Position numbers and translations under genes: made by a program. This document shows positions 5,613 through 30,477 of a stretch of DNA of 32,000 nt, piece after piece. The notes under the pieces were generated by a model, which worked only from the letters and a program-made list of their open reading frames with translations, was not told where the DNA came from and did not search any database. Origin of the DNA: an archaeon GW2011_AR10 (GTDB taxonomy: Archaea > Iainarchaeota > Iainarchaeia > Iainarchaeales > GW2011-AR10). Location of the stretch: positions 630,001-662,000 of the forward strand of contig CP010424.1 of NCBI GenBank assembly GCA_000830275.1. Direction: 5' to 3'. Numbering within the stretch: the first letter of the stretch is position 1; the number at the start of each line of letters is the position of its first letter.

Positions 5613-8600
5613 CTAATTTTTTTCTCTTCGAATGTAAACAAAGACCGCAATTAATGAAACAATGAAAAGTGCTAAAACAACAGGGTTTTCTGGAAGCGAT
5701 GGAAGGTTAAGCAGGCTCTTGTCGGTTTCCCCTACCTGCAGGTTAAGCACGTTGCCTGAAGCAGTTGAAGTTACCTCGTTGTTGGGGCCAACTCTTGCAG
5801 AAATGCCTTCGCGGAAAGCCTCAATCAAAGGCAGCAGCTGGGCGTTTTCAGCATACCACAAGCCTTTCTCCGGGTCATAATAGAATGCCCCGTTCCTTCC
5901 CTGCGCTGAAGTAAGAACCTCTGGCTTCTGCCCGTCGAAGGAAACTGTTGGAACACCGTTTTCTGCAGCAAAGTCAAGCGTGTGCTTTTTGCCGTTCTCG
6001 TCAATGAATTCAAGGCCATTTGGAGTGGCTCTTGCAGTTCCAGCAAAGTCTTGAATCTCGCCTGTTTCCTTATCTATTACCCTCAAATGGTCCTTGCATG
6101 CTCCTGTTTCATCTCTTTCCGAGCTCAGCACATACCTTTTGGTCGGGGTTTCAAATACTTGGAAGGGGCCGAATTTTTTTAAGGAAGTATTGAATGCAGC
6201 AACCTTTGCTTGGTTCGCGGGACTATTGGGGTCGCCTTCCACTTGGAAGTCAAGAGCTGGTTCCTCGCACTGGTTTTCAGGGTTAGTGGAGGAAGTCAGG
6301 TCAGTGTCAAGGCCCCTAACATCGTTTTGTTCAAGTATGCCCTGCTCGTGGTGCCTTAACCAAATAAGGTAACAGCCGTCAGGCCTTGCAACAATCATTC
6401 CATTCTTGAACTGGATTGACTTAAGCGAGCCAACTTCCGGAATCCCATCATTAGAGCTTGAGAGCGCAACATCATTGTTTGCAAGTACATTTATTGTTGA
6501 AATGTTTCCTACAGCAATTTTTCTTGGAACTCCTTCAGCGACAATCCTGTCACCTAATGGCCTGATGTTGGGGTGCGTAGTGGTTATAACGGAATTCACC
6601 AACCCAAATGTTGAGGTTAAATTGTTTCCCCCAACCAAAGGCAAACCAGTCTGCTGCATCACTCCATCCTGCAGGCACGCCCGCGCTTCAGGATGTGTTA
6701 TGAATGCCTCGCCCCTTGCATTCACCTGAATTGCAACATCAGCTGTTGGAGGCAAGCAGACAGTTGTCAATGTTCTTGGAACTTTTTTAGCTGGAATGCT
6801 TAGCTCAAGGTCATCTCCGGCCAACCTTGCTGCATCCTCGTTCTCTACAATAGGCTTTCCATCAAAGAGTATCTTGCCGTTCTCGAAATCAAAGTCAAGG
6901 CCTTTCCCTGTTGTTTTGTCTTTCACTGTTTCCTTTCCCTCTGTTTTGTATTCGCCGGAACTCATCTCGCAGCCCGGTCCACACCAGAAATAGAACAGCT
7001 TTCTTCCCTTCAGCTGGCCTGAGCTCTGACCTTGAATGCTCAAGCGTGCCTGAACAATGTTTTTTTCCTCGGAATCATTCACAAACTTTTTGATGTCATT
7101 TCCGATTCCTTCAACCTGCTCTTTGACCAATGAGTCTTCACTGCTGCCGCTGAATGCACCGGTTATCTGCTCGTTGAGGTTGCCAATAAAATTGGAAACT
7201 TTTTCAGTTGAAAGCTCCACGTTTCCTTCATCGTCCCTCTCCTCCATTGGAGGAACAAGGTAATGCACGAAGTAGCCTTCCTCAACATCAACGCAGTCCT
7301 GAAGCTTTGGAGCGTAAAGGGTTTGAATTGCAACAGTGCTGAATGCTCCAGGCCAGAAAAAGGTTGCGTAAGCCAAGGTTTCAATGCCGCCAAGCACTCC
7401 ACCAATGCCGCCTTCTTCAGGCAGGAATGGAGCAATTTTTTTTGCTGTGGCATAACCAGGCAAAGAGAACACTGCCTGCTTGCAGGTTTTTGGTTCCCCT
7501 TCGGGCTGCACGAATTCCTGGCCCCTGTCCCTTGCCTCGAATTCTTCCTGCTCGTTGCTCCAGGCATCATGCAAATCAATTCGTTCCCCTTCAATGTCCC
7601 CAGTGCTTCCCTTCAAGTCCATGTGGTGCGCGAAAGCAATCAGGGTTTGGCCTTTCTGCAAGGCATCCTCCGAGCGCGTGTCCTCAAGAATGTAGGCATC
7701 GAAAGGCCTGCCGACAACAAAGAAGGGGTTAAAGTCCTCCAAGTTGGCTGAATTCAATGTGACAAAACAGTCAACGCATTCATTGGGGCCAGTCAAGTAA
7801 AACGCAAGGCTTTCGGTTTCATTCCTCAGTTCCCTTCCTGAGAGCTTGTTGTAAAAGTCCGCAACAGGATTGAATTTATCGCTTACTTCATCAAGCACAA
7901 GCTTCCATGGAAGCTTGTTTGCAACCTGCACAAACAAATCGCCTTGATCAGAACCCTCATTTGCAAAGAAGTCAATGTATGCTTCAAAGTAAAGCGGCTT
8001 GTCTTGGAGCAGGAAGTCAACCTCGCTCCAAGTGTCTGGCAGCTGGTAAAGTGATAGGTCCTCAAAGCCTGCTCCTTTTTTGCTCCACCAGTAGCCAAAC
8101 GGGTAAACAGTCCACTTTGCACCGCCCTTGAACGAAAAATAGCTCCTTATTATTTCGTCTTCTTCTGCCGCAAGCTTGTCAAGCCAGCTCCAGTAGCGCC
8201 TTGAAACCCAGTTTCGTTCACGGAGAGTATTAAGCATTAAGTCAGTATTCACTTTTGACCTCAAAACGTTTGAACCAACCCTTGCGTTTGTCAATGCAGA
8301 TGAAAGCTCTTCCGGAGTAAGCACTTTAGAAGGCCCCCAGTTTCCTTGAACAATTGTAGGGTTGCCGCCAATCCTGTTCTGAATTAACGGAATGCTTGCA
8401 TCAGTGTAATGGATGTATTCGCCCATGTCGGTTTTTACCCAAGTATTGGCATAGCCTTTGGCCGCCCTTTCAAGGTTGCTGTAACTTAAGGCCCTAAACT
8501 CTGTTGTTGTGGCAGGGTCAAAGCCATAAAGTATGAGGTTTCCAAACTCGTCAGTTTCATAGGCGCTGCGGTACTTGTTTATCTCAGCCGTAAAGTTCCT

Positions 8601-10442
8601 CCAGTTGCCAGAGTCAACGAATTTATCCAGAATTACGCGGAAGTTCCTGTGCTCTGAGAACAAGTCAAGAACATCGCCTGTGTTCACCTGCTTTACTCCC
8701 TTGTCATACAGGCCCATATTGACATGCCTGACAATCCATTCAGGAAGGTCGGCTCCCATTTGGTCATCCGCAGTTGTGAGGAACTTTGCAAAAGAACGGC
8801 CATAATCAACAAGGGCTTTTTTCCCTTCAGGGTGCGTTAATGGGTCAATTCCTTGGTCCCTTAGTTTGTTAAAAATATTTGAGTATACTTTCTCTGACTG
8901 TTCCACTTCGTGGAGGCCGCCCCTCCATATTGTCCTCAGGTCTTTCATGACGCGGACAAACTCTGCTTTCTTTTCAAGAGTGTCAATTGATTCAAGGAAT
9001 CCGCCTTTCGCCTGCTGTTTTCCCCACCAGTCAAAGAACTCCTGGGTTTTAATAATTGGGTAGCCTGTGCCATCAGAGCTGCCGATTGTCATGCTCTGCC
9101 AGAAGTCACGCCAGCCGTACTTGTCAATTTTTGACTGCATCCTTGAAACCTTAAGGTCTCCAAGGAAAGAGCCAGGAGTTTCAAATGTTGCCCTGAACCT
9201 GTCAGCGTAATCTGTGAGTTTTCCTTTCAGGCCAGGCAAGAGGCCTCTTCTCGCATTCCAGCCGAACATTTTTTTTGCTGCATAGCCAAGGCTCGGCCCG
9301 AAATTTGTTACAACCATTTCAGCGCTCAGCCACTGGTTAAAGTATTTGTCAAACATCGAGTAAGTTGTTATAATGCAGTCGTTGCTGATGCAGTTGGTGC
9401 CGAATTCTGCGTCAAACTCCTGTGCAAGAATCGAGTTGGGAAGCAACTCTGTTTCCAGTCGAGTTGCGGTTTTAATGTGGTTGGGAAAAGAACATATGCT
9501 GTTATCCCACACCATTCCAGCTGAAGTGCATGAAGCTTCATCTCTTGGGGTTTCAATGCACTCTCCTGTTACCTTGCTGTAAAAGTTTTTTGCTCCATCA
9601 GTGCACTGCTCCTGGGAAACTTCTTTCCAGAGCTCTTCCTGTCCTTCCTCAGTGAAAACCGCTGCTGCCAGAACTTCCTGCTCTTCTGATGTGAACTCTG
9701 GCTTTTCTGTTGAGTTTTCATCAGTGAACCAGCTCTTTATTTTGTCGTATCCGCTGCCGAAAGCTTCCTTGATTGGTTTAAAATCTGCAGCAATTCCTGA
9801 ACCGGAATTTCTGTAAGTGAGGTTTTTTCCTGTAAGCCAGCAGTTCTGGTCGTAGTCCTTGCATCTCCCTGTACGCAGAGAATCATCAAGCACAAGACCG
9901 AAAGCGAAAGGCCCCTTTATGTGCCTGTTCAAGTAATTGCTTATCTCCCAAGGATTAAATTTTTTGTTTGGCAAGTCGGCTTTTGCCGTGACGTTTTCGT
10001 CCTGCTGCGATTTCAGAATGATGTTGTTTTCTTTCAGCTCATCCCTGTCATCAATCTCGTTTTCTGTTTGCTGTGGAAGAGCATCACCGCTTATCTCTTC
10101 TCCAACAAAGCCGTCTTTCAGGAGGTTTAGTATGTTGTTGCTTTCAGTTGGTGTAAGAGAACGGGACTCGCAGACATAACCCCTGTTTGGGAAAGGCGAA
10201 GGTATCGGCACTATAGGAGAAGTTGCAGGAGGAACTGCAGGTATTATTGGAGGGGGTTGTGGCACAGCATCAGGCGTCGGATCAAGCACTGTTGCATCTG
10301 CACCCTGAAATGCGGCAGAATTTTCGTTTTCAGTTGGATTTAAAGGTTCTGGTGCCTGTTCAGCGTAATAGTCCTGCGCGTTGGCAGGATAAGTGCTAAG
10401 CAGAATTATTGCAATCAAGAAAAGGCTTGGAAGTTTCCTCAC
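5613..10442 (-). CDS. Giant (1609 aa) secreted surface protein with a Pro-rich linker and a C-terminal PEP-CTERM-like sorting signal; candidate S-layer protein or adhesin
   Basis: Uninterrupted 4.8-kb ORF with a GTG start. Signal peptide RKLPSLFLIAIILLSTYPANA/QDYY. Pro-rich stretch PTPDAVPQPPPIIPAVPPATSPIVPIPSPFP. The C-terminus is tripartite: ..LPENP, a hydrophobic helix VVLALFIVSLIAVFVYI, and a basic cluster RREKN. I recognise no domain in the body. Confidence 0.9.
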   Translation of the reverse strand: MRKLPSLFLIAIILLSTYPANAQDYYAEQAPEPLNPTENENSAAFQGADATVLDPTPDAVPQPPPIIPAVPPATSPIVPIPSPFPNRGYVCESRSLTPTESNNILNLLKDGFVGEEISGDALPQQTENEIDDRDELKENNIILKSQQDENVTAKADLPNKKFNPWEISNYLNRHIKGPFAFGLVLDDSLRTGRCKDYDQNCWLTGKNLTYRNSGSGIAADFKPIKEAFGSGYDKIKSWFTDENSTEKPEFTSEEQEVLAAAVFTEEGQEELWKEVSQEQCTDGAKNFYSKVTGECIETPRDEASCTSAGMVWDNSICSFPNHIKTATRLETELLPNSILAQEFDAEFGTNCISNDCIITTYSMFDKYFNQWLSAEMVVTNFGPSLGYAAKKMFGWNARRGLLPGLKGKLTDYADRFRATFETPGSFLGDLKVSRMQSKIDKYGWRDFWQSMTIGSSDGTGYPIIKTQEFFDWWGKQQAKGGFLESIDTLEKKAEFVRVMKDLRTIWRGGLHEVEQSEKVYSNIFNKLRDQGIDPLTHPEGKKALVDYGRSFAKFLTTADDQMGADLPEWIVRHVNMGLYDKGVKQVNTGDVLDLFSEHRNFRVILDKFVDSGNWRNFTAEINKYRSAYETDEFGNLILYGFDPATTTEFRALSYSNLERAAKGYANTWVKTDMGEYIHYTDASIPLIQNRIGGNPTIVQGNWGPSKVLTPEELSSALTNARVGSNVLRSKVNTDLMLNTLRERNWVSRRYWSWLDKLAAEEDEIIRSYFSFKGGAKWTVYPFGYWWSKKGAGFEDLSLYQLPDTWSEVDFLLQDKPLYFEAYIDFFANEGSDQGDLFVQVANKLPWKLVLDEVSDKFNPVADFYNKLSGRELRNETESLAFYLTGPNECVDCFVTLNSANLEDFNPFFVVGRPFDAYILEDTRSEDALQKGQTLIAFAHHMDLKGSTGDIEGERIDLHDAWSNEQEEFEARDRGQEFVQPEGEPKTCKQAVFSLPGYATAKKIAPFLPEEGGIGGVLGGIETLAYATFFWPGAFSTVAIQTLYAPKLQDCVDVEEGYFVHYLVPPMEERDDEGNVELSTEKVSNFIGNLNEQITGAFSGSSEDSLVKEQVEGIGNDIKKFVNDSEEKNIVQARLSIQGQSSGQLKGRKLFYFWCGPGCEMSSGEYKTEGKETVKDKTTGKGLDFDFENGKILFDGKPIVENEDAARLAGDDLELSIPAKKVPRTLTTVCLPPTADVAIQVNARGEAFITHPEARACLQDGVMQQTGLPLVGGNNLTSTFGLVNSVITTTHPNIRPLGDRIVAEGVPRKIAVGNISTINVLANNDVALSSSNDGIPEVGSLKSIQFKNGMIVARPDGCYLIWLRHHEQGILEQNDVRGLDTDLTSSTNPENQCEEPALDFQVEGDPNSPANQAKVAAFNTSLKKFGPFQVFETPTKRYVLSSERDETGACKDHLRVIDKETGEIQDFAGTARATPNGLEFIDENGKKHTLDFAAENGVPTVSFDGQKPEVLTSAQGRNGAFYYDPEKGLWYAENAQLLPLIEAFREGISARVGPNNEVTSTASGNVLNLQVGETDKSLLNLPSLPENPVVLALFIVSLIAVFVYIRREKN

Positions 10443-10484
10443 GCTATCGCCTTAGTTTTTCCTTTAGGATAATGTGTTTTCCAT

Positions 10485-10588
10485 TATAGCAAACAGCTTT
10501 GATTTTTGAACATTTAATTTGCTGTTTGCTAGTTGCAAAACGCAGTTTTTGTTCATATTCAAATACATAAGCATTTTGCTATATATAT
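10485..10588 (-). promoter_or_regulatory. Conserved upstream module, copy A, containing the 11-bp inverted repeat TAGCAAACAGC(10487-10497)/GCTGTTTGCTA(10521-10531)
   Basis: The reverse complement aligns by eye with 29706-29831 at roughly 85% identity over the aligned blocks. The inverted-repeat arms are identical and the loop core ATTTTTGAAC is shared. A TATA-like tract (tatatatatagc) sits at the distal end. Confidence 0.7.
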
Positions 10589-10623
10589 AACTTATTATTA
10601 TTCGAAATTAGGCAAGGCTTTGC

Positions 10624-11166
10624 TTAAATTTCCGGCCAATAGTAAATGAATGCCAGAGTGCCGCTGATTATCCATTGAGCGAAAAAGAGCACGAATATGG
10701 AGGCAAGCAGTGTTACAATGAAAACCGTTAAGTAGAGCTTCAGTGCCCAGTGGAACTTGAACGACTTCTTGATTTTTTCGTGCAAGAACAGGCCTATGAA
10801 CTCAAGCGGCAAAACAATGAAGGAAAGCACTAATGCAACAACAAGCAGCCTTACAAGCTGAATTAGCGCAATTAAGAGCAGCTCCAGAACAGGAGTCTGG
10901 AATTCAACTGGAGTTTCACCAAATGGATCGCTTTGAAGCAAGGGCAAAGCAGGCTGAAGATACAAAACTAATATTAATGAGAATATTAGTAAATATGTGG
11001 TTATGAATCCTGACTTGAACCAACTCCACTTGTACTTTCCGGCAATGGCCCTGCGCACTTTTGAAGCAAAAAAAACGAAAATGAAAACAGGAACGGAGCT
11101 TATGAAGGAGCCTTTCAGCAAATCAATCAGGGAAAAAACGGTAACCGAAACAAGGTCCTGCACCAT
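10624..11166 (-). CDS. Hypothetical polytopic membrane protein (180 aa)
   Basis: ORF with 4-5 hydrophobic helices and no recognisable motif. Confidence 0.65.
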   Translation of the reverse strand: MVQDLVSVTVFSLIDLLKGSFISSVPVFIFVFFASKVRRAIAGKYKWSWFKSGFITTYLLIFSLILVLYLQPALPLLQSDPFGETPVEFQTPVLELLLIALIQLVRLLVVALVLSFIVLPLEFIGLFLHEKIKKSFKFHWALKLYLTVFIVTLLASIFVLFFAQWIISGTLAFIYYWPEI

Positions 11167-20005: not shown

Positions 20006-22285
20006 TCAAGACTTTGTTTTGGCAATTATTCCCTTAATTAAGTGGTTTTTTACCCAGTTCTTCCACTCGCCCAGAACCTCTTCGTAGTCAACGGAACCGT
20101 GTTCTTCAAGCTGGTCCTCCTTCAATAGCATGAGCTTGTTGTTTGCAAGAACCGCGTTTTCTGCTTCAAGCAGAGAAGGAATTGAATTCTTGTTCTTCAT
20201 TTCCACCAAAAACTCTTTTGCCGAGCCATTCATTCTTATGCTCCTCCAGATTTCTTCAAGGTTGAGGCCGCTCATCTTGCTTATCTTTGAGAACATCTCG
20301 CTTTCCTTAAGGTTGTCTTCAAGCAGTTCAAGCTCGTCTTTTTTTGCGTCATAACTCATTAGGTCCAGCAAACCGCCCTCTCTTTCAGGATCCTCAATCC
20401 AGTGCTTTTTCACCTCTGTTATCTGGACAATTCTCCTGTTCCTCTGCAGTGACCCGGAAAACCTTATCGGCCTTGCAACCACGACAACATCAGTTGCCTT
20501 AAACGAAGTGTTTGGAACATCCAAGTCATTCACTACCCTATCCCACACAGAGTAAGCGCTTTCACCGTGGATTGTTCCCATCACAATGTTTCCCGCAGCA
20601 CCAATTCTCATTGCCTCGTACAGAACCCTTGCTTCCTTGCTCCTCACTTCACCTATGATTAGGGCAGAATCTCCCAAACGAAGCGCTGTCCTCAAAGCTT
20701 CCTCTGGCGCAACCTCAGAGGAAGTGCCGCCAGCAGCAATAGGTGAACGCGTTTTAAGCCTCTGGATGTTGAAGCCTATGTTCTTCATGTAAGGAACTGG
20801 AAGTTCCAAGGTGTCTTCCTGCACAATTATTCTCGTGCTCTGGATAATTTCAAGGATTAGTGCCTGCATCAAAGAAGTTTTTCCGCTGCCCCTTGAACCA
20901 GTAACCAGCATTGTTGCCTGTGCGTCAACGAAAAAAGAAAGCAGGCCTGCTGAAAGAGGAGTTAAAAATTTCACGTCAACAAACTGGGGCAGCGTCCAAG
21001 GAGTAACCTTATGCAGCCTGAAAGCAAACGCGATTCCGCTCGGCGCAAGCGGCGGGCCAATGACTGCAACCCTTGTCTCCATGTCAGGCAAATCAAAGTC
21101 CAGGACTGGATGAGCTTCATCAAATGGCCTGCCTGACATTGCACGCATTTTTGATACAAGCGAACTTGCCTCTCCTTCAGTGTAAAGAATGTTGGTTTCG
21201 CACTGGCCAAAGTCAGAGTGAATAACGTAAAGCGGCTTCTGCCCGATGGGAGAATCAATGAAAATGTCTGTGAGGTTCCTGTCAGAGAGCAGCAGTTCAA
21301 GGATTCCGTAGCCGACAGTGTACCTTGCAACAATCTGGCTTAACTCAATTATTTCATCGTTGCCAAGAGAAATATTGTTCTCTTTCGCGATGTCCTTGAT
21401 TGTTGACTGGTAAACGCGCTCAAAGTACTTCCTGCTTTTCGCAAGCTCGCTTAAAGAGGTTTTTCCAGGCCTGTACGATGCAACGATTTCCCTTGTCTTG
21501 CTCAAAATGAAGTACTTGTCCGGGGGCAGGGAATACTCTGGGGGATTGACAATGTAAAGCTTCTGCGGCTTGTTCGGGTGCTTGAATATCTGCACTGTTG
21601 TATCCTTCACTTGGTATTCGTCCAGAAGCTCCAGCTTTTCCTCTTCTTCAAACAGCAGCCTTGAACCGATAAAGGAGGGTTTTACCTGCGCTTCAAAGAA
21701 CGGCTTGTACATTTCTTTTGTGTCAGGAACTGTTTTCAGCTTCAAAAGAATCTGTTTGGCTTTCTGGACAAGCATTGTGCTGTCAAGGTTCTTCTTTATG
21801 TAAAGCAGGGTGCGAAGGTAAACATCAGAGTAATGCTCTTTGTCCTCAGAGCTAAAGCGCTCCCTTTCCTTGCTGATGGCGCGGAGCAGTTCAAGGTAAG
21901 AATAAATCGGGTCAAACAACAGGGTATCGTGAGTGATTTTAACAATAGTGTTGTGCCTTTCACCGAAGTCTTTTTCGCCCTCAATTTTTGCATCCCCTAA
22001 AAACTTGTAGCTCCACACGCTTTCAATCTCTAATTTTTGCGCAACCCTCGAAATTTCCTCCAGAAGCTTTTTCTGCTCCTCGCTGTAAACCCTTTCGTAC
22101 ACTTCAGCCAAAACAATGTCGTCAACTTCCACTTCTTGAAGCAGGCTGAAGACATGGTACCTGCATGCAGGGTCATCAGCGATTGAGGAACTATAAACGC
22201 AGTCGCGACAGTCAAAAATCAGGTGCCTCTTGTTGCCTTCCTCTTTAACCGCCCAAGGGCCTACTTCAAAACCGCCGATTTTCAA
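20006..22285 (-). CDS. Type IV pilus/archaellum-family assembly ATPase (FlaI/PilB-like, 759 aa) with a long N-terminal extension
   Basis: Walker A GSRGSGKTS, Asp box RIIVQEDTLE, Walker B ALIIGEVRSKE, His box GTIHGES. TTG start preceded by AGGTGA with a 6-nt spacer. N-terminal Cys cluster FDCRDCVYSSSIADDPACRYH. Confidence 0.9.
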   Translation of the reverse strand: MKIGGFEVGPWAVKEEGNKRHLIFDCRDCVYSSSIADDPACRYHVFSLLQEVEVDDIVLAEVYERVYSEEQKKLLEEISRVAQKLEIESVWSYKFLGDAKIEGEKDFGERHNTIVKITHDTLLFDPIYSYLELLRAISKERERFSSEDKEHYSDVYLRTLLYIKKNLDSTMLVQKAKQILLKLKTVPDTKEMYKPFFEAQVKPSFIGSRLLFEEEEKLELLDEYQVKDTTVQIFKHPNKPQKLYIVNPPEYSLPPDKYFILSKTREIVASYRPGKTSLSELAKSRKYFERVYQSTIKDIAKENNISLGNDEIIELSQIVARYTVGYGILELLLSDRNLTDIFIDSPIGQKPLYVIHSDFGQCETNILYTEGEASSLVSKMRAMSGRPFDEAHPVLDFDLPDMETRVAVIGPPLAPSGIAFAFRLHKVTPWTLPQFVDVKFLTPLSAGLLSFFVDAQATMLVTGSRGSGKTSLMQALILEIIQSTRIIVQEDTLELPVPYMKNIGFNIQRLKTRSPIAAGGTSSEVAPEEALRTALRLGDSALIIGEVRSKEARVLYEAMRIGAAGNIVMGTIHGESAYSVWDRVVNDLDVPNTSFKATDVVVVARPIRFSGSLQRNRRIVQITEVKKHWIEDPEREGGLLDLMSYDAKKDELELLEDNLKESEMFSKISKMSGLNLEEIWRSIRMNGSAKEFLVEMKNKNSIPSLLEAENAVLANNKLMLLKEDQLEEHGSVDYEEVLGEWKNWVKNHLIKGIIAKTKS

Positions 22286-22325: not shown

Positions 22326-22393
22326 GGTGGTTCAGTGGAATTCGCGTAACTCAAAAACCACCCATAATCCACCGACTTAGGCCGGTGGTTTTT
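22326..22393 (+). other. Two hairpins followed by T5 in the divergent intergenic region (candidate small RNA or terminator-like element)
   Basis: GGTGGTT(22326-22332)/AACCACC(22356-22362), then CCACCG(22369-22374)/CGGTGG(22383-22388), followed by TTTTT(22389-22393). Sequence observation only. Confidence 0.25.
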
Positions 22394-22540
22394 GAAAGCT
22401 GCAGCGAATAAAAAAGGCCTAATCTTATTATTATACTTTATCTTCAATGAAAGAAACTAATAATAATAACAAAATACATTGTTTTTCTGCGGAAAGTGAA
22501 GCACTAAGAGCATGGCTGACTTGAAGCAAAAGGTGAACTG

Positions 22541-23809: not shown

Positions 23810-24367
23810 ATGCACAAAAAATTTGAATTTCTGAGTAAAACTTTTTCAGAGAAAGAAATACTTAAAGCAGGAAAGTTTCTTTTGGGCTTAGCTGCATACT
23901 TCATTGCGCTGAGCTTTCTTGTTTCACTGGTGCCGCTGGAATTGGTTGAATTCTTTTTTGCATCAGTTTCACTTTTCTTTCTTGGGTTTTTTGGCTTTTC
24001 GGGAGAACTGGTTTTCACGGAACCAGTTATCATGCAATTGCAGGGCTTGGAGCAAGGAATTGCAATAACCTATCTTTGCACTGGCCTGCTGGAACTGGTG
24101 CTGCTTGTTTCAGCTGTTGCCTCCTCGTTCGGCATTGAATGGAAAAAAAGAATTATTGGAGTTATTGCTGGCGCAATTGCATTGGTTGCGTTCAACGTTT
24201 TCAGGATAGTTTCAAGCATTCTGATTATTCTTTGGTTTGGTTTGGAGGCAGGTGGCTTTTCGCATGACCTGTTGTTCAGGGTTTTTTTGTTTGCAACCGT
24301 TGCCGGCTACTATTTTGTGTGGTTTAACTGGGCCACAAGACTAAAAAAACTGAATTCCACCTTATAG
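23810..24367 (+). CDS. Minimal exosortase/archaeosortase-family protein (185 aa)
   Basis: A multi-TM protein carrying the family's three signature positions in the expected order and spacing: Cys90 in ITYLCTGLLEL (C-[ST]-G), Arg132 in AFNVFRIV (N-x-x-R), and His152 in GGFSHDLLF. Confidence 0.75.
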   Translation: MHKKFEFLSKTFSEKEILKAGKFLLGLAAYFIALSFLVSLVPLELVEFFFASVSLFFLGFFGFSGELVFTEPVIMQLQGLEQGIAITYLCTGLLELVLLVSAVASSFGIEWKKRIIGVIAGAIALVAFNVFRIVSSILIILWFGLEAGGFSHDLLFRVFLFATVAGYYFVWFNWATRLKKLNSTL

Positions 24368-24730
24368 CATTATAGTGTTTTCTCCTTCAAAGTGTTTGTC
24401 CCCAGTAACAATCGGCAGATTGTACTGCTTTGCTGTTGCAAGAATGATTGCATCAATTAAACCAAAATCCTTGAAGTTTTTTCTTTTTTCTATTTTTAAT
24501 ATACCTGATGTTTCCAATTGTTCTTGGTTGACTTCGATAATTGTAGACAGGTTTTTAACAATGTGAAAAATTTTTTGCCGGTTAAGTTTGCTTTTTTCAA
24601 CCCACTCGCTCAGCTCTGCAATAGAAATAGCACTTGTGAAACACTGGTTATTAGCAATAACTTCTTTTACTTTTAGGCCCCTGCTAGTACCATTAAATAA
24701 TTCAATCCAAGCATATGTATCCAAAAGCAC
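24362..24730 (-). CDS. vapC: PIN-domain toxin (VapC-like)
   Basis: GTG start abutting the antitoxin stop. N-terminal LLDTYAWIE (first acidic residue). ..GLIDAIILATAKQYNLPIVTGDKHF.. is typical of a PIN C-terminus. Confidence 0.8.
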   Translation of the reverse strand: MLLDTYAWIELFNGTSRGLKVKEVIANNQCFTSAISIAELSEWVEKSKLNRQKIFHIVKNLSTIIEVNQEQLETSGILKIEKRKNFKDFGLIDAIILATAKQYNLPIVTGDKHFEGENTIML

Positions 24731-24949
24731 TTAAAACACTCTGTCTTTGTGGTCTCGCCTAAAGGGTTTTGCATTTTTTACAGAACCAAATGCTTTTTCA
24801 AGTAAAGAGATGTCTTTTTTAATAACAGCCAACTGTATTTTCTCCCCCTCGCCGATTTTTTCCTGTTTTACTACCTCCTTTGGAATCAGAGCACCCCAAG
24901 AACTCCCAACCTTTCTAAGCTTGGTTTCAAAAACCTGCACAAAAATCAC
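24731..24949 (-). CDS. vapB: AbrB/SpoVT-type antitoxin (VapB-like)
   Basis: ..TKLRKVGSSWGALIPKEVVKQEKIGEGEKIQLAV.. is a swapped-hairpin AbrB-like motif. The gene sits immediately upstream of the PIN gene. Confidence 0.7.
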   Translation of the reverse strand: MIFVQVFETKLRKVGSSWGALIPKEVVKQEKIGEGEKIQLAVIKKDISLLEKAFGSVKNAKPFRRDHKDRVF

Positions 24950-25131: not shown

Positions 25132-25716
25132 GTGAATTTGTTGGAGAAGCGCTATAGAAACCTCGCCCTGTTAGTGGTTGCAGTAATAGTTTTAGCTTTG
25201 GCTTGGCTTCTTTTTTCCTCTGTTTCCTTTGAGTCAAAGCTCTCGGAAATTGATGCAGTGTGGAAAGAAAACGGCCTTAGCGTGGCTGGTTTTCCTTACC
25301 GAAATTCACAGGAATTTGACGCGCTCAGCCTGCAGGAAATTGAGTCACTGAAGGAAAGGCTTGGCAGGGTTGAGCCGGCAAGAATTGAATCAGTTGAACA
25401 GTTTGTGGCATTAAACAAAAAGCTGTTGGCTCTTGCAACCGCTAGGAAACTTTTGGAGGAAAAAGTTCTTGCAATCGAATCAACAGCAGGCATATGCAGT
25501 GAACTCAGCCTTCTTGATGAACTGCTAGAAGCCCAAAGGGAAGTGAACGAAAAATCAAAATCGTTTGTTGGAAGCTACAATTTGTTCGTTGAGTCTTTTC
25601 CTAGGGAAGCCGAGACAGCATCGCTTCCACAAATTGAGGACAACGGCCTTGAACTGGAGTTCCTGCTCGCGCAACAGGAGGAAAATGCTGCAGCAGTCAG
25701 GGGTGAGTGCGCTTGA
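25132..25716 (+). CDS. N-terminally anchored ~195-aa two-Cys protein (paralog of 29884..30477)
   Basis: TM anchor LALLVVAVIVLALAWLLF. Blocks shared with the paralog: LSLQEIESLKERL vs LSSAELAELKVEL; an internal Cys (GICSEL vs DYCSNI); SFVGSY vs SFVGKY; and a C-terminal G-x-C (GECA* vs GAC*). Confidence 0.75.
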   Translation: MNLLEKRYRNLALLVVAVIVLALAWLLFSSVSFESKLSEIDAVWKENGLSVAGFPYRNSQEFDALSLQEIESLKERLGRVEPARIESVEQFVALNKKLLALATARKLLEEKVLAIESTAGICSELSLLDELLEAQREVNEKSKSFVGSYNLFVESFPREAETASLPQIEDNGLELEFLLAQQEENAAAVRGECA

Positions 25717-28700
25717 AGAAAAAACCTTTATTCTTGCTTTTGCTGCTTGCACTGCTTTTAACTGCCGCTAACGCAGAAGCACAAATTGCTGCCTCTGAGT
25801 GGAATGAAGGCGTTATTGCAACCAGCTTCAGCTGCAGGAAAAGCAACTGCGTTGCATTGCCCTCTCGTTTGGCTTTAGGCAAGAGAGTTGAGGTGTGCTC
25901 TTCCAAAGGATGCGTGACCGCGGTTGTAGCAGATGTTGGGCCTTGGTGCAGGCAGGATGACCCCTACGTGCTTGGCAACAGCAGGCCTTTTGCTGAGCAG
26001 CGTGCAGGAGAAAACCTTGATGATGCATTAAAATTTCCTGAAGCAGGAGAGGACACCTTGGACTGCAGAACTAACCCGAAAGTTGGAGGGCCTATTCCAA
26101 GGAAAAGCAACGGCGCAGGCATTGACTTATCGGTTGATGTTGACAGGGAACTAGGCAACAACGGAAAAGGAATTGTGAGCTGGAGGTTCATTGATGATCC
26201 AACCAATTCGCTGTTGAAATTGATTGACACTGCAAGAAAATCCCAGCAGGAGTCAATTCCAAATATTTTTTCGGCTTCAATTAGTTCAGGCGCTCCGCTT
26301 GACTTCTTCAGGGGCAAAACAGTTCTTATTGATGTAGGGCACGGTGGAAGGGATCCCGGCGCAGTTTTCACCACCAAAAACGGGCAGACAGTGAACGAGA
26401 AGGACATGGCACTCTCGTATTCAAATAAACTCAAAGAAGTGCTTGAATCAAACGGGGCGAGGGTTTTGATGACAAGGGAAACCGATGTTTACCTTTCCTT
26501 GAGCGAAAGGGTTGACATCATTAACAGGGAAAAACCTGATGTTGCAATTTCAATGCACATTAACTCTGCAAGGCTGCCTGTTTTCAGGGGCACACCACTG
26601 GTTTTCGTGGCATGCCTTTTCAGGGAGGAGGGCAAAAACGGCAACGGCTTGGTTGACATAGCAGAATTTGCCTCATTTAACCAGTTGTGCCAGCCTAACC
26701 CTGCTGAAAGCCACCAAGGCAGCGTAATAGTGGCATCGAACGTTACAAACAAGTTAAGCGGGTTTCTTACCGGAATGCGCGTAGCTGATGCAACTGTTCT
26801 GGTTAGGTCAAATTCTCCTGTTGTGTTGTTTGAGGTTGGCTTTGGCTCGAACAAGGATGAACTTGAAAGAATGCTGACTCCATTGCACCAGACAACCATA
26901 ACTCTTGGCTTGGCAGCAGCAATACAGGATTACCTTGGAAAAACGAAAAAGGCAGCAGTAACTGGAACCGAGCTGAAGGAAATTGAGCTGGAGGAAGAAC
27001 TGGATTATGTTGTGCTGAACTTTGGTGACCTAAGCGAACTCGAAAGGAGGGGGGTGCCAAACCCAATCACTTCAATTGCAAGCGGCACAAAATTCTACAA
27101 GAACGGGAACGAAGTGGATGCGTTCGCAACTTCGATTGTTCCTGATTCGGCTGGCAGCGAAAACAAGCTGGCAGTGTACAGGCTGCAACAGTACTCATCA
27201 TACAATTTTGAGGTGAAGCTCACAGGCTACTTTGACAACAAGGTGATTGGCACAGGAAGCTTTGGGCCTATTCCTGGAAAGGCAAAGCCGGAGCTAAACG
27301 CAAATGTAAAGTGGAATTTTGCAGGGGAAGCAGCAGGCAATGTTGCTCCAACCGCTGTTGCAAATGACATAAATGCAGTGAAAGGAAAAGCGGTTTTGCT
27401 TGACGCTTCAAGGTCTTTTGACTCCGATGGAACAATTGAAGGTTACTTGTGGCTTGATTCAAGTCACCCGGATGAAAGCCCTGCAAATGGGAAAAGAGTT
27501 GCAGAGGCAACTGTTTCAGCTGTGTTTAACACTTTGGGAGAGCACCTTGTAATTCTTTACGTAACAGATGACAAGGGGGCAACCGGCTCGGAAACTTTTT
27601 ACGTGAATGTAGCCAAGGAACAAGAAGGCATAGTGGAAGAAGGAGCTCCGAGGATTGAGAGACTTGTGCTGAATTATGAGTATTCTTTACGAATCAGATA
27701 CAACGAGGACGGCACTATCAGGGAAACAGATGTTATTTCCCTGCAGCTCGGAAAAAACCAATTAATCTCTGCCGCGTTTTATTCCCCTGTTGAGTTTTAT
27801 CGCGCGCAACTTGAGCTCTGGGCATTCCAGGAGGGAATTACTCCAAGCGCGGCAAGCATTGAGAGGAGAATGATAATTGCGGCTGATGAACGAGGCACTA
27901 ATGCTCATGAGGCAGGCACTGACATATTGGTGCCAATTGATGAGGGAAAAATTGTCAGCCTAGACGAAATAGATTACGGAAAAATTGGGACAGGGCAGTG
28001 GAACAGTTCAGTGAAAGAGTTCGTGCAAAAATTCAAGGACAACCAGTATTATTTTAGGGTTGAAACAAGGATTGAAAAGGAAAGCAATGGTAAAAAGGTT
28101 GGCTCACAATTCGTGCCGGTAAGCATATCCTTGTTTGAGGAGCTTCCGCGCATTGAGAGCTGCAGTTCCATTAGGGAGTGCCTTGCCCGCGGCAGCCAGA
28201 TTGTTTCCAACAGTCTTTTGAGGGCAGGCGAACAGGCAGAAGATTTTGAGGGCTTGAAGTGCGTGCAATTAGAGGAAGGAAAGCAGCTGGATGTTGTCAG
28301 TGCTCCATGCATTTCAGCTGAAAGGATTGATGAAATCCTTGCAGCAAACGATTCTCCGGCAGCTGGAACAGGAAAGGCATTCTATGATTACGGTTTAAAG
28401 TACGGCATTGACCCAACAGTTGCCTTGGCTTTCTTTAGGGAAGAGTCAACTTTCGGAAAGTTTGGGGCAGCAAACAGGACAAAATCAATCGGCAACATCA
28501 GGTATTACGATACTGCTGACCCAAATGATGCTGCTTACTGCCCAACGCAGAGAAATGACAATGGATTCTGCTCTTATGACAGCTGGGAGCAAGGCATCGA
28601 GCACTTCTACAAGTACATTAATGGCCCGCTTTACGTTGCAGCAGGCAACAATACTCTGGAGGAAATAGTGCCAATTTACATTTCCGCTTCTTCAACTGAA

Positions 28701-28757
28701 ACAAGCAGCATCATCAGCAAAATGAGAAGCTGGTTGGCTGAGTGGAGGGAACAGTAG
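25707..28757 (+). CDS. Secreted multi-domain peptidoglycan hydrolase: DPBB/RlpA-like, N-acetylmuramoyl-L-alanine amidase (Amidase_3), PKD-like, and a C-terminal glucosaminidase/lysozyme-like domain
   Basis: Signal peptide KKKPLFLLLLLALLLTAANAEA. DPBB-like: LPSRLALGKRVEVCSSKGCVTAVVADVGPW..GAGIDLSVDV. Amidase_3 hallmarks: LIDVGHGGRDPGAV, NEKD, PDVAISMHINS, VLFEVGFGSN. PKD-like: LLDASRSFDSDGTIEGYLW..ILYVTDDKGATGSETFYVNV. C-terminus: GIDPTVALAFFREESTFGKFG..IGNIRYY..FCSYDSWEQGIEHFYKYI. The start is GTG 25707 or TTG 25713; the latter has GGGGTGA 6 nt upstream. The start overlaps the upstream gene. Confidence 0.85.
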   Translation: MRLKKKPLFLLLLLALLLTAANAEAQIAASEWNEGVIATSFSCRKSNCVALPSRLALGKRVEVCSSKGCVTAVVADVGPWCRQDDPYVLGNSRPFAEQRAGENLDDALKFPEAGEDTLDCRTNPKVGGPIPRKSNGAGIDLSVDVDRELGNNGKGIVSWRFIDDPTNSLLKLIDTARKSQQESIPNIFSASISSGAPLDFFRGKTVLIDVGHGGRDPGAVFTTKNGQTVNEKDMALSYSNKLKEVLESNGARVLMTRETDVYLSLSERVDIINREKPDVAISMHINSARLPVFRGTPLVFVACLFREEGKNGNGLVDIAEFASFNQLCQPNPAESHQGSVIVASNVTNKLSGFLTGMRVADATVLVRSNSPVVLFEVGFGSNKDELERMLTPLHQTTITLGLAAAIQDYLGKTKKAAVTGTELKEIELEEELDYVVLNFGDLSELERRGVPNPITSIASGTKFYKNGNEVDAFATSIVPDSAGSENKLAVYRLQQYSSYNFEVKLTGYFDNKVIGTGSFGPIPGKAKPELNANVKWNFAGEAAGNVAPTAVANDINAVKGKAVLLDASRSFDSDGTIEGYLWLDSSHPDESPANGKRVAEATVSAVFNTLGEHLVILYVTDDKGATGSETFYVNVAKEQEGIVEEGAPRIERLVLNYEYSLRIRYNEDGTIRETDVISLQLGKNQLISAAFYSPVEFYRAQLELWAFQEGITPSAASIERRMIIAADERGTNAHEAGTDILVPIDEGKIVSLDEIDYGKIGTGQWNSSVKEFVQKFKDNQYYFRVETRIEKESNGKKVGSQFVPVSISLFEELPRIESCSSIRECLARGSQIVSNSLLRAGEQAEDFEGLKCVQLEEGKQLDVVSAPCISAERIDEILAANDSPAAGTGKAFYDYGLKYGIDPTVALAFFREESTFGKFGAANRTKSIGNIRYYDTADPNDAAYCPTQRNDNGFCSYDSWEQGIEHFYKYINGPLYVAAGNNTLEEIVPIYISASSTETSSIISKMRSWLAEWREQ

Positions 28758-28817: not shown

Positions 28818-29699
28818 ATGGCAGCAAAGAGGAAAACAGGGAAAGAGAGCTTAGCCAGAATATTGGTTAAAGGAACTGGGAACAGCATTTGGTTCACAGC
28901 AAAGGCTCCGTTCACGGCAGGCTGGTGGGTTTCAAAGAAAGGCGTAAAGGCAACAGGGTGGCTTGCCAAGAAGGGCACAAAAGCAGGAAGTTGGTTGGGA
29001 AAAAAAGGAGTTAAGGCTAGCGCAGTTGCAGGGGCTTGGGCGGGAAAGAAGACAGCGTCGGCTATGAAGAGGCTCATAAAAAGCCCTTACGTTAGGTCTG
29101 CTGGCGCCGGGGTTATTGTTTACCAGTTTCCCAGCACAACCATTAAGCTGATTTTAACTGGAGTAAAATGGAGCGCAATTGGGGCTTACACTTTTCCAGG
29201 CGTGGTGATTCCAGCTGCCCTCGGTGCCGGAACATACCACTACTTTAAGGACGCCAGGAGAAGAAAGGTTATCTGGCAGTTGGTTTCAGCAGGGAAAGAC
29301 CTTGCATGGGAAAGGATTGGCGGCAAGCTGTTCATTAAGGGTGGTGACGGAAAAAATCGTTTCAGGTGGAGCCCAACGGAACTCATAGTGTTGGCTACTG
29401 AAAGGGCAAGGAAAGGGATAGCAGGGAGAAGAGAGACCAGGGAGGCCAGGCAAAGGCTTTTGAAGGCATTGGATGAACCAAGCATGAAAAAATTTGTTTC
29501 TGGAATCAGAAAGGAAATTGAAGCGATTCATAGTAGGGCTGCAAGGAAGGCAAAAGCAGTTAGTGGCCAATCAATAGTTGATGGCGCGGAAGTGCTCAAT
29601 GAAACCAGAAAAATCAAAGCCATCTTTACTGGAAAGTTCGAAAGGAAAACTGGAATAAAGCTGAGTGAAAGGCAGGTTGATGAAATTTTGAGCGGGTGA
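28818..29699 (+). CDS. Hypothetical protein with N-terminal Trp/Lys 11-aa tandem repeats, a central hydrophobic segment and a basic C-terminal domain
   Basis: Repeats: WVSKKGVKATG / WLAKKGTKAGS / WLGKKGVKASAVAGA / WAGKKTASAMK (nt 28926-29069). Hydrophobic region ..AGAGVIVYQF..GVVIPAALGAGTYHYF. No signal peptide. Confidence 0.7.
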   Translation: MAAKRKTGKESLARILVKGTGNSIWFTAKAPFTAGWWVSKKGVKATGWLAKKGTKAGSWLGKKGVKASAVAGAWAGKKTASAMKRLIKSPYVRSAGAGVIVYQFPSTTIKLILTGVKWSAIGAYTFPGVVIPAALGAGTYHYFKDARRRKVIWQLVSAGKDLAWERIGGKLFIKGGDGKNRFRWSPTELIVLATERARKGIAGRRETREARQRLLKALDEPSMKKFVSGIRKEIEAIHSRAARKAKAVSGQSIVDGAEVLNETRKIKAIFTGKFERKTGIKLSERQVDEILSG

Positions 29700-29705
29700 A
29701 CAATT

Positions 29706-29831
29706 AAATATAGCAAAACGCTTAAGTAATTGAACATTGAAACAAAACGCTTAAGTAATTGAACATTTAAATTGCATTTTGCATCTAGCAAACAGCAATA
29801 AAAAGTTCAAAAATATAAGCTGTTTGCTATA
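29706..29831 (+). promoter_or_regulatory. Conserved upstream module, copy B: a 25-nt tandem direct repeat plus the 11-bp inverted repeat TAGCAAACAGC(29786-29796)/GCTGTTTGCTA(29819-29829)
   Basis: Aligns by eye with the reverse complement of 10485-10588. caaaacgcttaagtaattgaacatt occurs twice (29714-29738 and 29743-29767). Copy A has a single, diverged copy. Confidence 0.7.
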
Positions 29832-29883
29832 CAATAAACTTAGTAATGTTAAGTAATGGAATGCTGTGGGTTAAGGTGGTTGG

Positions 29884-30477
29884 TTGGATAAGAGATGGAA
29901 AAACCTGTTGCTCTTGGGGGTTTTAATTCTGGTTGTTGCAGCTGCGGCATTTATTATTCTTCAGCCAGGACCTGGAAGGGCAAAGACGTTTGGAGAGGGG
30001 TTTGAGGAAATGAAAGCATTTTTTGCAGGAAAAGGAATTGATGCCGGGGCGTTAGACATTGAGGACTTGGCTGCTCTGTCTTCGGCTGAACTTGCAGAGC
30101 TAAAAGTTGAGTTGCAGTCTTTTGCAAGTTCGTTTAATGGGCCTGGCTCTGCAAAAGAGCTTGCGGGAGTTTATGTTTCAGCAATTGATTTGGGGGCCAA
30201 GTCAAAAGCGCAGGGCAAAAAAACCAACCAAATTGATGCCCTCAGCCTGCAGGACTACTGTTCAAACATTGTGCTGTTCAAGGAAAGGGATTCACTGGAG
30301 GAGGAAAAAATTGGTTTGCTGGAGCAATTGAAAACAAATATTAATTCTTTTGTTGGAAAGTACTCAAATGAGGCACAGCAGATAGGGCTTAAACCGCTTG
30401 AAGTGGACATTGAAGCGCTGCGCTCTGCAAATGGTGAGAGAGCAACGGTAACAGCGCAGCTAGAGGGAGCATGCTGA
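29884..30477 (+). CDS. N-terminally anchored ~195-aa two-Cys protein (paralog of 25132..25716)
   Basis: TTG start with AAGGTGG 4 nt upstream. TM anchor LLLLGVLILVVAAAAFIIL. The blocks shared with 25132..25716 are listed under that feature. Confidence 0.75.
   Translation: MDKRWKNLLLLGVLILVVAAAAFIILQPGPGRAKTFGEGFEEMKAFFAGKGIDAGALDIEDLAALSSAELAELKVELQSFASSFNGPGSAKELAGVYVSAIDLGAKSKAQGKKTNQIDALSLQDYCSNIVLFKERDSLEEEKIGLLEQLKTNINSFVGKYSNEAQQIGLKPLEVDIEALRSANGERATVTAQLEGAC

Follow-up and report, generated by a model that had tools for sequence, protein, structure and literature searches.

A dispersed, probably mobile palindromic repeat with promoter-like sequence upstream of two secreted-protein genes in an Iainarchaeota genome

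Two copies of an intergenic palindromic module were analysed in a stretch of 32,000 nucleotides from the archaeon GW2011_AR10 (contig CP010424.1; the whole stretch is called the window below). Module A (10485-10583, minus strand) lies upstream of the gene for a 1609-aa secreted protein, and module B (29709-29831, plus strand) upstream of the gene for a 197-aa membrane-anchored protein. The best explanation, to which we give a probability of about one half, is that both are copies of a dispersed, probably mobile palindromic promoter-like cassette, which is the likely source of the promoter for both secreted-protein genes. The family occurs so far in three lineages of Iainarchaeota (DPANN) only. 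The genomes of DPANN archaea are very small, with few regulators, and there is next to no knowledge of how their genes are switched on.

A preliminary description of this DNA had proposed that the reverse complement of 10485-10588 aligns with 29706-29831, and this was borne out by formal alignment. When the two intergenic regions (181 and 184 nt) were compared, the reverse complement of 10485-10583 and the segment 29709-29831 gave a local alignment score of 54, whereas 1000 dinucleotide-preserving shuffles gave 13.0 ± 2.2 with a maximum of 22, and other segments of the window scored 18 at most. The similarity therefore exceeds by far that expected by chance between A/T-rich intergenic sequences. 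The finer details were also reproduced: the opening 30-nt blocks match at 26 positions, the arms TAGCAAACAGC/GCTGTTTGCTA are exact in both copies (10487-10497/10521-10531 and 29786-29796/29819-29829), the loops of 23 nt (A) and 22 nt (B) have ATTTTTGAAC in common, and TAGCAAAM is present three times per module. In the window, the 11-mer TAGCAAACAGC has four exact occurrences, all of them in these two arm pairs. For TAGCAAAM, the seven occurrences window-wide (5.1 expected) are not above chance, and its clustering is what matters. As first described, the copies point outward and bracket 10.6-29.7 kb, and the proteins encoded downstream of them are unrelated.

Each module is formed by two related units of ~47 bp, placed back to back in opposite orientation, and as a whole constitutes an imperfect palindrome of ~100 bp with ends TATAGCAAAAYGC / GCTGTTTGCTATA and no internal open reading frame. 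Each unit opens with an arm of 11 bp, after which come a variable A/T-rich stretch of 7-9 nt, GTTCAA, another 8 nt, the complementary arm and TA, the A/T-rich spacer that separates the arms and contains GTTCAA being 21-23 nt long. Unit 1 faces the downstream gene, has the arms TAGCAAACAGC/GCTGTTTGCTA and carries an invariant block of fixed spacing, GTTCAAAAA-N3-AAG-CTGTTTGCTATA, whereas unit 2 faces away from that gene and has arms of the TGCAAAAYGC type. All five two-unit modules read TA/TAGC...GCTA/TA or a one-base variant of it; the module pattern with the true gap of 6 is GTTCAAAAANNNAAGCTGTTTGCTA, with module ends of the TATAGCAAACAGC type.

Module A is flanked by the stop of a 180-aa gene at 10624 and the GTG at 10442 with which the 1609-aa gene begins. 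Its unit 1 (10485-10531, minus strand; arms at 10487-10497 and 10521-10531, 23-nt loop) matches the covariance model described below with 71.3 bits and has GTTCAA at 10506-10511, read as TTGAAC on the plus strand. Unit 2 (10532-10587, plus strand; 56 bits) is an inverted paralogue of unit 1, with arms TTGCAAAACGC (10533-10543) and GCATTTTGCTA (10571-10581) that show one C·A mismatch, and it runs on into a TATATATA tract (10580-10589). In module B, which has the stop of a 293-aa gene at 29699 on one side and the TTG at 29884 with which the 197-aa gene starts on the other, unit 2 is followed by unit 1 (29786-29831, plus strand; 67.8 bits), with arms at 29786-29796 and 29819-29829, GTTCAA at 29805-29810 and the terminal TA at 29830-29831. 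Unit 2 of this module (29711-29785, minus strand) has the arms TAGCAAAACGC (29711-29721) and GCATTTTGCA (29774-29783) and includes tandem 29-mers at 29714-29742 and 29743-29771, a duplication that is polymorphic and lacking in one strain contig (L020). A third, partial copy of the 29-mer motif, TTAAGTAATTGAA, was seen at 29849-29861, within the putative leader of the 197-aa gene.

The family was searched for with a covariance model (R1) built from the aligned units. It detected four units in the window, at least four on another contig of the same organism (locus L040) and more in loci L003, L006 and L008. The latter two belong to the Ca. Iainarchaeum metagenome-assembled genome (MAG) JAPLVT01, in which one module separates the proteasome beta gene from that of aCPSF1 (L008) and another lies between the gene for a 595-aa surface protein and an rpiA-like gene (L006). 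L003 comes from MAG CAZSDT01, whose RecJ-like protein shares 81% identity with one that bears the label Ca. Iainarchaeum; the locus has a single unit 1, and no unit 2, in the divergent region before the RecJ-like gene. In L040, the units are clustered at 20843-21125 in the divergent region between Taw1 and PRC, together with two hairpins that have other arms. These hairpins (20909-20958 and 21048-21092; arms GCAAAAGACATTA around a loop of 15 nt and arms ATAGCGAATGACTT around one of 17 nt) resemble each other and have TAGC...GCTA ends in common with the units, and a segment of the ancestral Taw1 promoter (TATA plus TTATGTAG) is seemingly duplicated and inverted on either side of the cluster. 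The whole L040 intergenic region was also considered as one large inverted-duplication palindrome, since its units are oriented -,- and then +,+, but the formal alignment of the two halves was not convincing.

No full unit beyond the two modules was detected by R1 in the 10 kb on either side of the window. A solo half-unit, CATAGCAAACAGCAAATTAAAAATTC, lies ~1.5 kb left of the window start (L045, 7684-7712), upstream of a 215-aa gene that has a canonical TATA itself; over 20 nt the half-unit matches the left half of module A unit 1 exactly, and it looks like a decayed or truncated copy. The tally for the window organism is three sites and this half-unit in ~85 kb. Across 50 loci the arm was found only inside units. 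A scan for arm pairs in one genome per species returned 11 loci, three archaeal and eight bacterial, and the bacterial ones were discarded as unrelated hairpins because their arms extend into tight G+C stems. The metagenome scan, carried out with TTCAAAAN and GCTGTTTGCTATA at a gap of 4-5 where the true gap is 6, produced five chance matches (L012-L016) and is the main reason for the small census. Three patterns scanned against viral contigs gave nothing, or chance coding matches with no second arm.

Unit 1 is almost invariant across genomes of 30-50% GC whose flanks are unalignable: that of module B and that of L006 are identical at 43 of 44 positions, the aCPSF1 proteins of the two hosts being 69% identical and their G+C contents different. 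The genes downstream (surface proteins, aCPSF1, rpiA-like, RecJ-like, Taw1/PRC) are functionally unrelated, and the element is therefore not specific to surface genes. The co-regulation of surface genes that had been suggested at the outset found no support, both on this ground and because the unit is missing from the orthologous sites of sister genomes.

Filled and empty versions of the same site were found for three of the loci. The Taw1/PRC spacer measures 433 nt in L040, which has the units. In L043, L039 and L046 it has none and measures 122, 110 and 162 nt, respectively, and the ancestral promoters are recognisable there. The proteasome-aCPSF1 spacer is ~325 nt long with the module in L008, and 75-105 nt without it in six other genomes, one of which encodes an aCPSF1 86% identical to that of L008. 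In L003, an 89-nt block made of a hairpin and unit 1 (2070-2158) is present immediately 5' of the TATA box of the RecJ-like gene, whereas in L048, whose RecJ-like protein is 89% identical, the site reads GGTAAATTACTTACC joined directly to TTAAATTTAAAAC. Eight other Iainarchaeota yielded no unit in ~20 kb each. Non-orthologous sites by gene starts and the presence or absence of blocks between sister genomes thus point to a dispersed repeat and not to an inherited operator. [quoted passage not shown]

Within the species, ~20 strain contigs from more than 10 samples showed the modules to be nearly fixed, with two single-nucleotide polymorphisms and the polymorphic 29-nt duplication. No close sister species of the window organism was present in the aCPSF1 match list, the nearest entry being 77% identical, and modules A and B themselves are therefore not datable. 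Long direct repeats that flank module A (10405-10428 and 10597-10620, 71% identical) were set aside as probably due to chance, as one copy is coding.

The window is archaeal, as it encodes a PAC2 proteasome-assembly chaperone, two FlaI/PilB-type ATPase and platform sets and an exosortase/archaeosortase-family protein, the last of which had been taken for a sortase in the preliminary description. Therefore, its promoters must follow the logic of a TFB-recognition element (BRE) and TATA box, and not that of -35 and -10 boxes. A bacterial reading, with a -10 TATAAT overlapping the 3' arm, was dropped, since PAC2, the archaeosortase, aCPSF1 and the taxon labels of related loci identify an archaeon.

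Promoter signals were derived from 110 upstream regions in nine Iainarchaeota loci (L017, L027, L037, L039, L040 and L042-L045). Octamers of A and T only show a sharp peak 21-26 nt ahead of the start codon (mode 23), so most genes are leaderless. A position weight matrix (PWM) was built from 46 leaderless genes, out of 106 regions with a spacer of at least 45 nt and with four module-linked genes set aside; it shows a weak A-rich BRE and TTTWAAWA at a modal spacing of 23 nt (range 19-26) from the ATG. A minority of genes, among them proteasome beta and aCPSF1, have leaders of ~25-60 nt with GGTG/GGGG Shine-Dalgarno motifs.

When scored with this matrix, the units reached 4.1-7.1 (roughly the 99.5-99.9th percentile), each of them in one orientation at least and most of them in both. 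In the gene direction, unit 1 of module B, L006 and L008 scored 6.0, against a window-wide 99.9th percentile of 6.06, and unit 1 of module B had this score in both orientations. In module A unit 1 the match is AATTAAAT (score 4.1), with a predicted start at TATAA (terminal TA at 10485-10486). The predicted start falls exactly at ...GTTTGC/TATA, which is the conserved TA after the arm. A unit thus has the layout of the core promoters of this lineage: the inner arm end offers an A-rich stretch resembling a BRE, and an 8-nt A/T box, 23 nt and TA follow, mostly on both strands.

The 1609-aa, 197-aa and L008 aCPSF1 genes have no canonical TATA at leaderless distance, and instead carry Shine-Dalgarno-like sequences (AAGGCGAT, AAGGTGG and GGTGA, respectively) at 44-56 nt from the unit end. 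In the window, the putative 5' leaders would span 10443-10484 (minus strand, ~44 nt, AAGGCGAT at 10446-10453) and 29832-29883 (plus strand, AAGGTGG at 29873-29879). A Shine-Dalgarno sequence together with a missing leaderless TATA would be the expected look of a unit-driven, leadered mRNA. No alternative promoter was found within 180 nt of the 1609-aa and 197-aa genes, and as they have no other canonical promoter, the modules probably supply theirs, judging from sequence. The shared promoter/operator of the preliminary description is partly right: it stands as a genuine, non-random 5'-intergenic element with promoter-like content, but behaves like a repeat that is dispersed or inserted, and not like a conserved regulon operator.

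In the mechanism we propose, the palindromic intergenic repeat would spread by copy-and-paste in the manner of MITEs or Correia elements. Each window module would supply an outward-firing promoter for the leadered, Shine-Dalgarno-bearing mRNA of the 1609-aa or the 197-aa protein, and the second unit would fire antisense into the upstream gene. The complementarity of the arms would be kept by an end-recognising protein, either a transposase or a DNA-binding factor, or by hairpin-templated correction; it is probably not kept as RNA structure.

Several observations weigh against this proposal. The PWM scores of the units (4-7) are below those of genuine nearby promoters (7-10.6). In the L003 unit the left A/T box is a poor one, and a box in the reverse orientation is missing from copy A. 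The L040 Taw1 and PRC genes, the L006 rpiA-like gene and the L003 RecJ-like gene keep a canonical TATA between unit and ATG, at leaderless distance, so the units are not required as promoters of these four genes. The family has been observed at ~6 sites in 3 genomes only, and no presence/absence polymorphism of the modules was found among the ~20 strain contigs. No transposase Pfam domain was detected in the window or beside any copy, and no parent insertion sequence (IS) in the window and the neighbourhoods of the copies. TA is found on both sides of all five modules and may belong to the element; these flanks are indistinguishable from its own ends, so there is no clean target-site duplication, and the L003/L048 junction falls within A/T-rich repeats that make its boundaries ambiguous. 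Finally, unit 1 is much better conserved between genomes than unit 2, which fits a selected function as well as mobility.

The upkeep of the palindrome was followed in 14 distinct units. In these, 89.5% of the arm cells pair and 5 of the 11 pairs are changed on both sides, a result reached by none of 500 shuffles; the paired changes reflect three arm classes, AGCAAACAGC, TGCAAAAYGC and TGTGAAATGC. The dyad symmetry is maintained, and this fits a DNA palindrome as well as an RNA. The unit 2 arms of the window carry mismatches on the same strand, C·A (copy A) and U·G (copy B), which look like decay since the L040 copy is perfect. When the full leaders were folded as RNA, the outermost arms paired with each other, and not as local hairpins. 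A search of the window, L003, L006, L008 and L040 against Rfam 15 gave nothing at the gathering score except one tRNA elsewhere in L006, the only sub-threshold match being a chance snoRNA match (snoR20, 21.9 bits versus a gathering score of 43, E = 0.84). The folding and covariation analysis recommended in the preliminary description thus revealed compensatory changes in the arms, but no strand-specific RNA signal and no Rfam match. The structured 5' leader proposed there gained no specific support, because the best-fitting promoter starts after the hairpin, no Rfam family matches and the unit 2 mismatches are not strand-consistent. Long-loop perfect inverted repeats of at least 11 bp are found four times in the window and three times in L040, and not at all in ~150 kb of loci from seven relatives, which hints at some agent or process, specific to the lineage, by which palindromes are made or spread.

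A bolder version of the proposal, offered tentatively and rather unlikely as a whole, is that the unit would be a self-contained, fully palindromic portable archaeal promoter, mobile within and between Iainarchaeota genomes, with arms kept by hairpin-templated correction. The inner part of one arm would serve as BRE, and the outer end of the opposite arm with the flanking TA as the start, on either strand; units landing beside TATA boxes would convert genes to leadered, Shine-Dalgarno-dependent mRNAs and create antisense transcripts. A shared operator, in which a dimeric transcription factor binds both arms around the TATA-like spacer and co-regulates the downstream genes, appears doubtful. 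It would explain why, in unit 1, three genomes with differing loops and flanks all keep the arms, GTTCAAAAA and AAG unchanged, an invariance that exceeds the weak BRE and start-site constraint of ordinary promoters, and why the arms straddle promoter-like sequence; the unit 2 arms of JAPLVT01 are also changed on both sides (GTGAAATGC/GCATTTCAC), as an altered protein specificity would need. However, the putative targets, from surface proteins to aCPSF1, rpiA-like, RecJ-like and Taw1, have no common theme, the sites arrive as inserted blocks, and the orthologous sites of eight relatives have no unit. In addition, the arm-to-arm distance varies between 21 and 23 nt (left loop 7-9 nt), a variation that a rigid dimer would not easily accommodate, the centres of the half-sites lie ~33 bp from each other, and no candidate regulator recurs beside the modules. 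If the palindromes were instead selfish or neutral debris without a role in expression, their promoter likeness would come from A/T-rich loops and a preference for insertion at TATA boxes. This would agree with the units right beside existing canonical TATA boxes in L003, L040 and L006, with the decayed and half units, and with long-loop perfect inverted repeats of unrelated sequence being common in this organism only. We consider it unlikely, given the near invariance of unit 1 in genomes of 30-50% GC with unalignable flanks, and given that the 1609-aa and 197-aa genes would be left with no alternative promoter within 180 nt.

Transcription from the distal TATA-like tract would place the unit 1 stem-loop in a structured 5' leader, where it could control mRNA stability, processing or translation. 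The distal TATA-like boxes of A and B score 6.4-6.9 in the gene direction, and an RNA hairpin tolerates a variable loop length more easily than a protein site does; leader A folds better than its shuffles (z = -3.3), whereas leader B is not significantly structured (z = -1.8). The paired changes in 5 of 11 arm pairs and the 89.5% of pairing arm cells would also suit a hairpin, but template-switch correction would be expected to produce covariation in a DNA palindrome just as well, and the C·A and U·G of unit 2, on the same strand, are no strand-consistent wobble. As L008 has lost the distal TATA, L003 has no unit 2, the L040, L003 and L006 genes have their own promoters downstream of the unit, which leaves the hairpin outside their mRNA, and no Rfam family matches at the gathering threshold, a leader hairpin seems quite unlikely. 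Extremely improbable is a role as recombination sites, by which the inverted copies 19 kb apart would invert the pilus/archaeosortase/hydrolase segment and cause phase variation. The two copies do have identical 44-nt cores and bracket surface-structure genes, and Correia elements have been reported to invert (PMC10969869), but one gene order across both modules and no inverted junction was seen in the ~20 contigs from more than 10 samples, the window has no recombinase gene, and the copies in other genomes are single or in other contexts. Origin recognition box (ORB) repeats, attC/integron sites, dif sites and a C/D-box small RNA were rejected, as neither sequence features nor context matched.

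Exact window proteins recur in Rifle groundwater assemblies and in the NCBI MAGs GCA_018304495.1 and GCA_013332025.1, and related loci carry the labels Diapherotrites / Ca. Iainarchaeum. The 1609-aa protein downstream of module A (5613-10442, minus strand) has a signal-peptide-like N-terminus and no Pfam or NCBIfam match. The 197-aa membrane-anchored ORFan (29884-30477, plus strand), encoded by the first gene of a same-strand run, is known only from this species, and no orthologues were found when they were sought for footprinting. Further window genes encode a PIN toxin and an Amidase_3-PKD-glucosaminidase protein. The latter (1016 aa, 25707-28757) has Amidase_3 (N-acetylmuramoyl-L-alanine amidase), PKD and glucosaminidase domains, and the presence of bacterial peptidoglycan hydrolase domains in a DPANN archaeon suggests an interaction with the bacterial cell wall. 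The PIN-domain toxin gene (24362-24949, minus strand) lies between the archaeosortase-like gene and the hydrolase operon and, with a 72-aa gene just upstream, likely forms a VapBC-type pair.

Two other long-loop inverted repeats were observed in the window. A perfect 14-bp repeat, CAACACTTTGTCAA/TTGACAAAGTGTTG, with a 26-nt loop lies at 2601-2654, in a gap of 542 nt between the T2SSF and PAC2 genes, and overlaps the start of the counterpart of a 117-aa HVO_A0114-family gene of MAG JAGVWF01 (L034); the window counterpart, with in-frame stops and no usable start, may be a pseudogene. A perfect 12-bp repeat, TCAAAAACCACC/GGTGGTTTTTGA, with a 21-nt loop is found at 22351-22395, in the divergent promoter region between the pilus ATPase operon (22285, minus strand) and a 411-aa gene (22541, plus strand), and its sequence is unrelated to the modules. 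Outside the window, the polyprenyl synthetase of L003 (3707-6211, 834 aa) has a large intein-like insert, its orthologue in the sister locus L048 (11539-12624) being 361 aa long, and one aCPSF1 homologue (P0064, 1101 aa) bears intein-type Pfam domains.

If the units are movable two-way promoters, they would offer a simple route to new expression, in which a ready-made promoter is dropped beside a gene. The idea of promoter-carrying MITEs would then extend from bacteria (Correia) to the TBP/TFB system of archaea, and a mobile promoter element would have been described for the first time in Archaea, from organisms whose regulatory repertoires are minimal. The compact 45-bp sequence would be directly testable by archaeal in vitro transcription. 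A caution also follows, as upstream motifs shared in metagenome bins may be dispersed repeats and should be checked before regulons are called.

Among known systems, a regulon operator is conserved upstream of orthologous or linked genes, whereas the unit precedes unrelated genes and is missing in eight relatives. Repetitive extragenic palindromic (REP) sequences, REPINs and bacterial interspersed mosaic elements are, like the units, short dispersed extragenic palindromes that form inverted doublets and are present or absent between relatives. In contrast to the units, REPs are G+C-rich tight hairpins mobilised by REP-associated tyrosine transposases (RAYTs) and usually located 3' of genes; the units are A/T-rich, have 21-23-nt loops and are placed 5' of genes, and neither a RAYT nor an IS200-type gene was observed. 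As for the archaeal core promoter, the A/T octamer and A-rich BRE are present at the spacing of the lineage, with scores below those of true promoters. Bidirectional BRE-TATA-BRE promoters of Pyrococcus (Thermococcales) have divergent starts ~49-50 bp apart and give antisense transcription in head-to-tail gene pairs (PMC6640164). The unit is likewise symmetric, with its outer TA dinucleotides ~45-47 bp apart. The Pyrococcus promoters, however, have one central TATA between two BREs, are gene-specific and are not repeated, whereas the unit has two A/T boxes around GTTCAA and 11-bp complementary arms and is copied between loci and genomes. As its centre is GTTCAA and not a single TATA, the two geometries are analogous without being the same.

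Archaea are known to harbour MITEs, which reach high densities in some DPANN genomes (PMC11602168; PMC10969869); our literature search found no MITE report for Iainarchaeota. Like Sulfolobus SM elements, Haloquadratum PATEs and DPANN cMITEs, the family consists of short, non-coding, dispersed intergenic repeats with inverted ends (a module of ~100 bp; a unit of 45 bp with perfect 11-bp ends), and it has non-orthologous copies with filled and empty sites at aCPSF1, Taw1/PRC and the RecJ-like gene. It differs from them in that no parent IS with matching ends was found, and in its length of 45-100 bp, at or below the usual MITE range. No related autonomous element or transposase with the same ends was detected in the window, the neighbourhoods of the copies, the 50 loci or the viral contigs. 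The nearest analogue is the Correia elements, the MITEs of Neisseria, which carry outward promoters and can form hairpins when transcribed, these being cleaved by RNase III (PMC10969869). The family presented here resembles them as a palindromic intergenic repeat of ~100-150 bp immediately upstream of genes. Correia element ends read TA/TAG..., and we know of no cognate transposase for them. The differences lie in the archaeal host, the BRE/TATA mimic in place of sigma-70, the two internally palindromic 47-bp units with long A/T loops and the apparently low copy number, and in promoter activity and mobility being predicted here from sequence. We regard the element as apparently MITE- or Correia-like in behaviour, and do not file it as a proven MITE.

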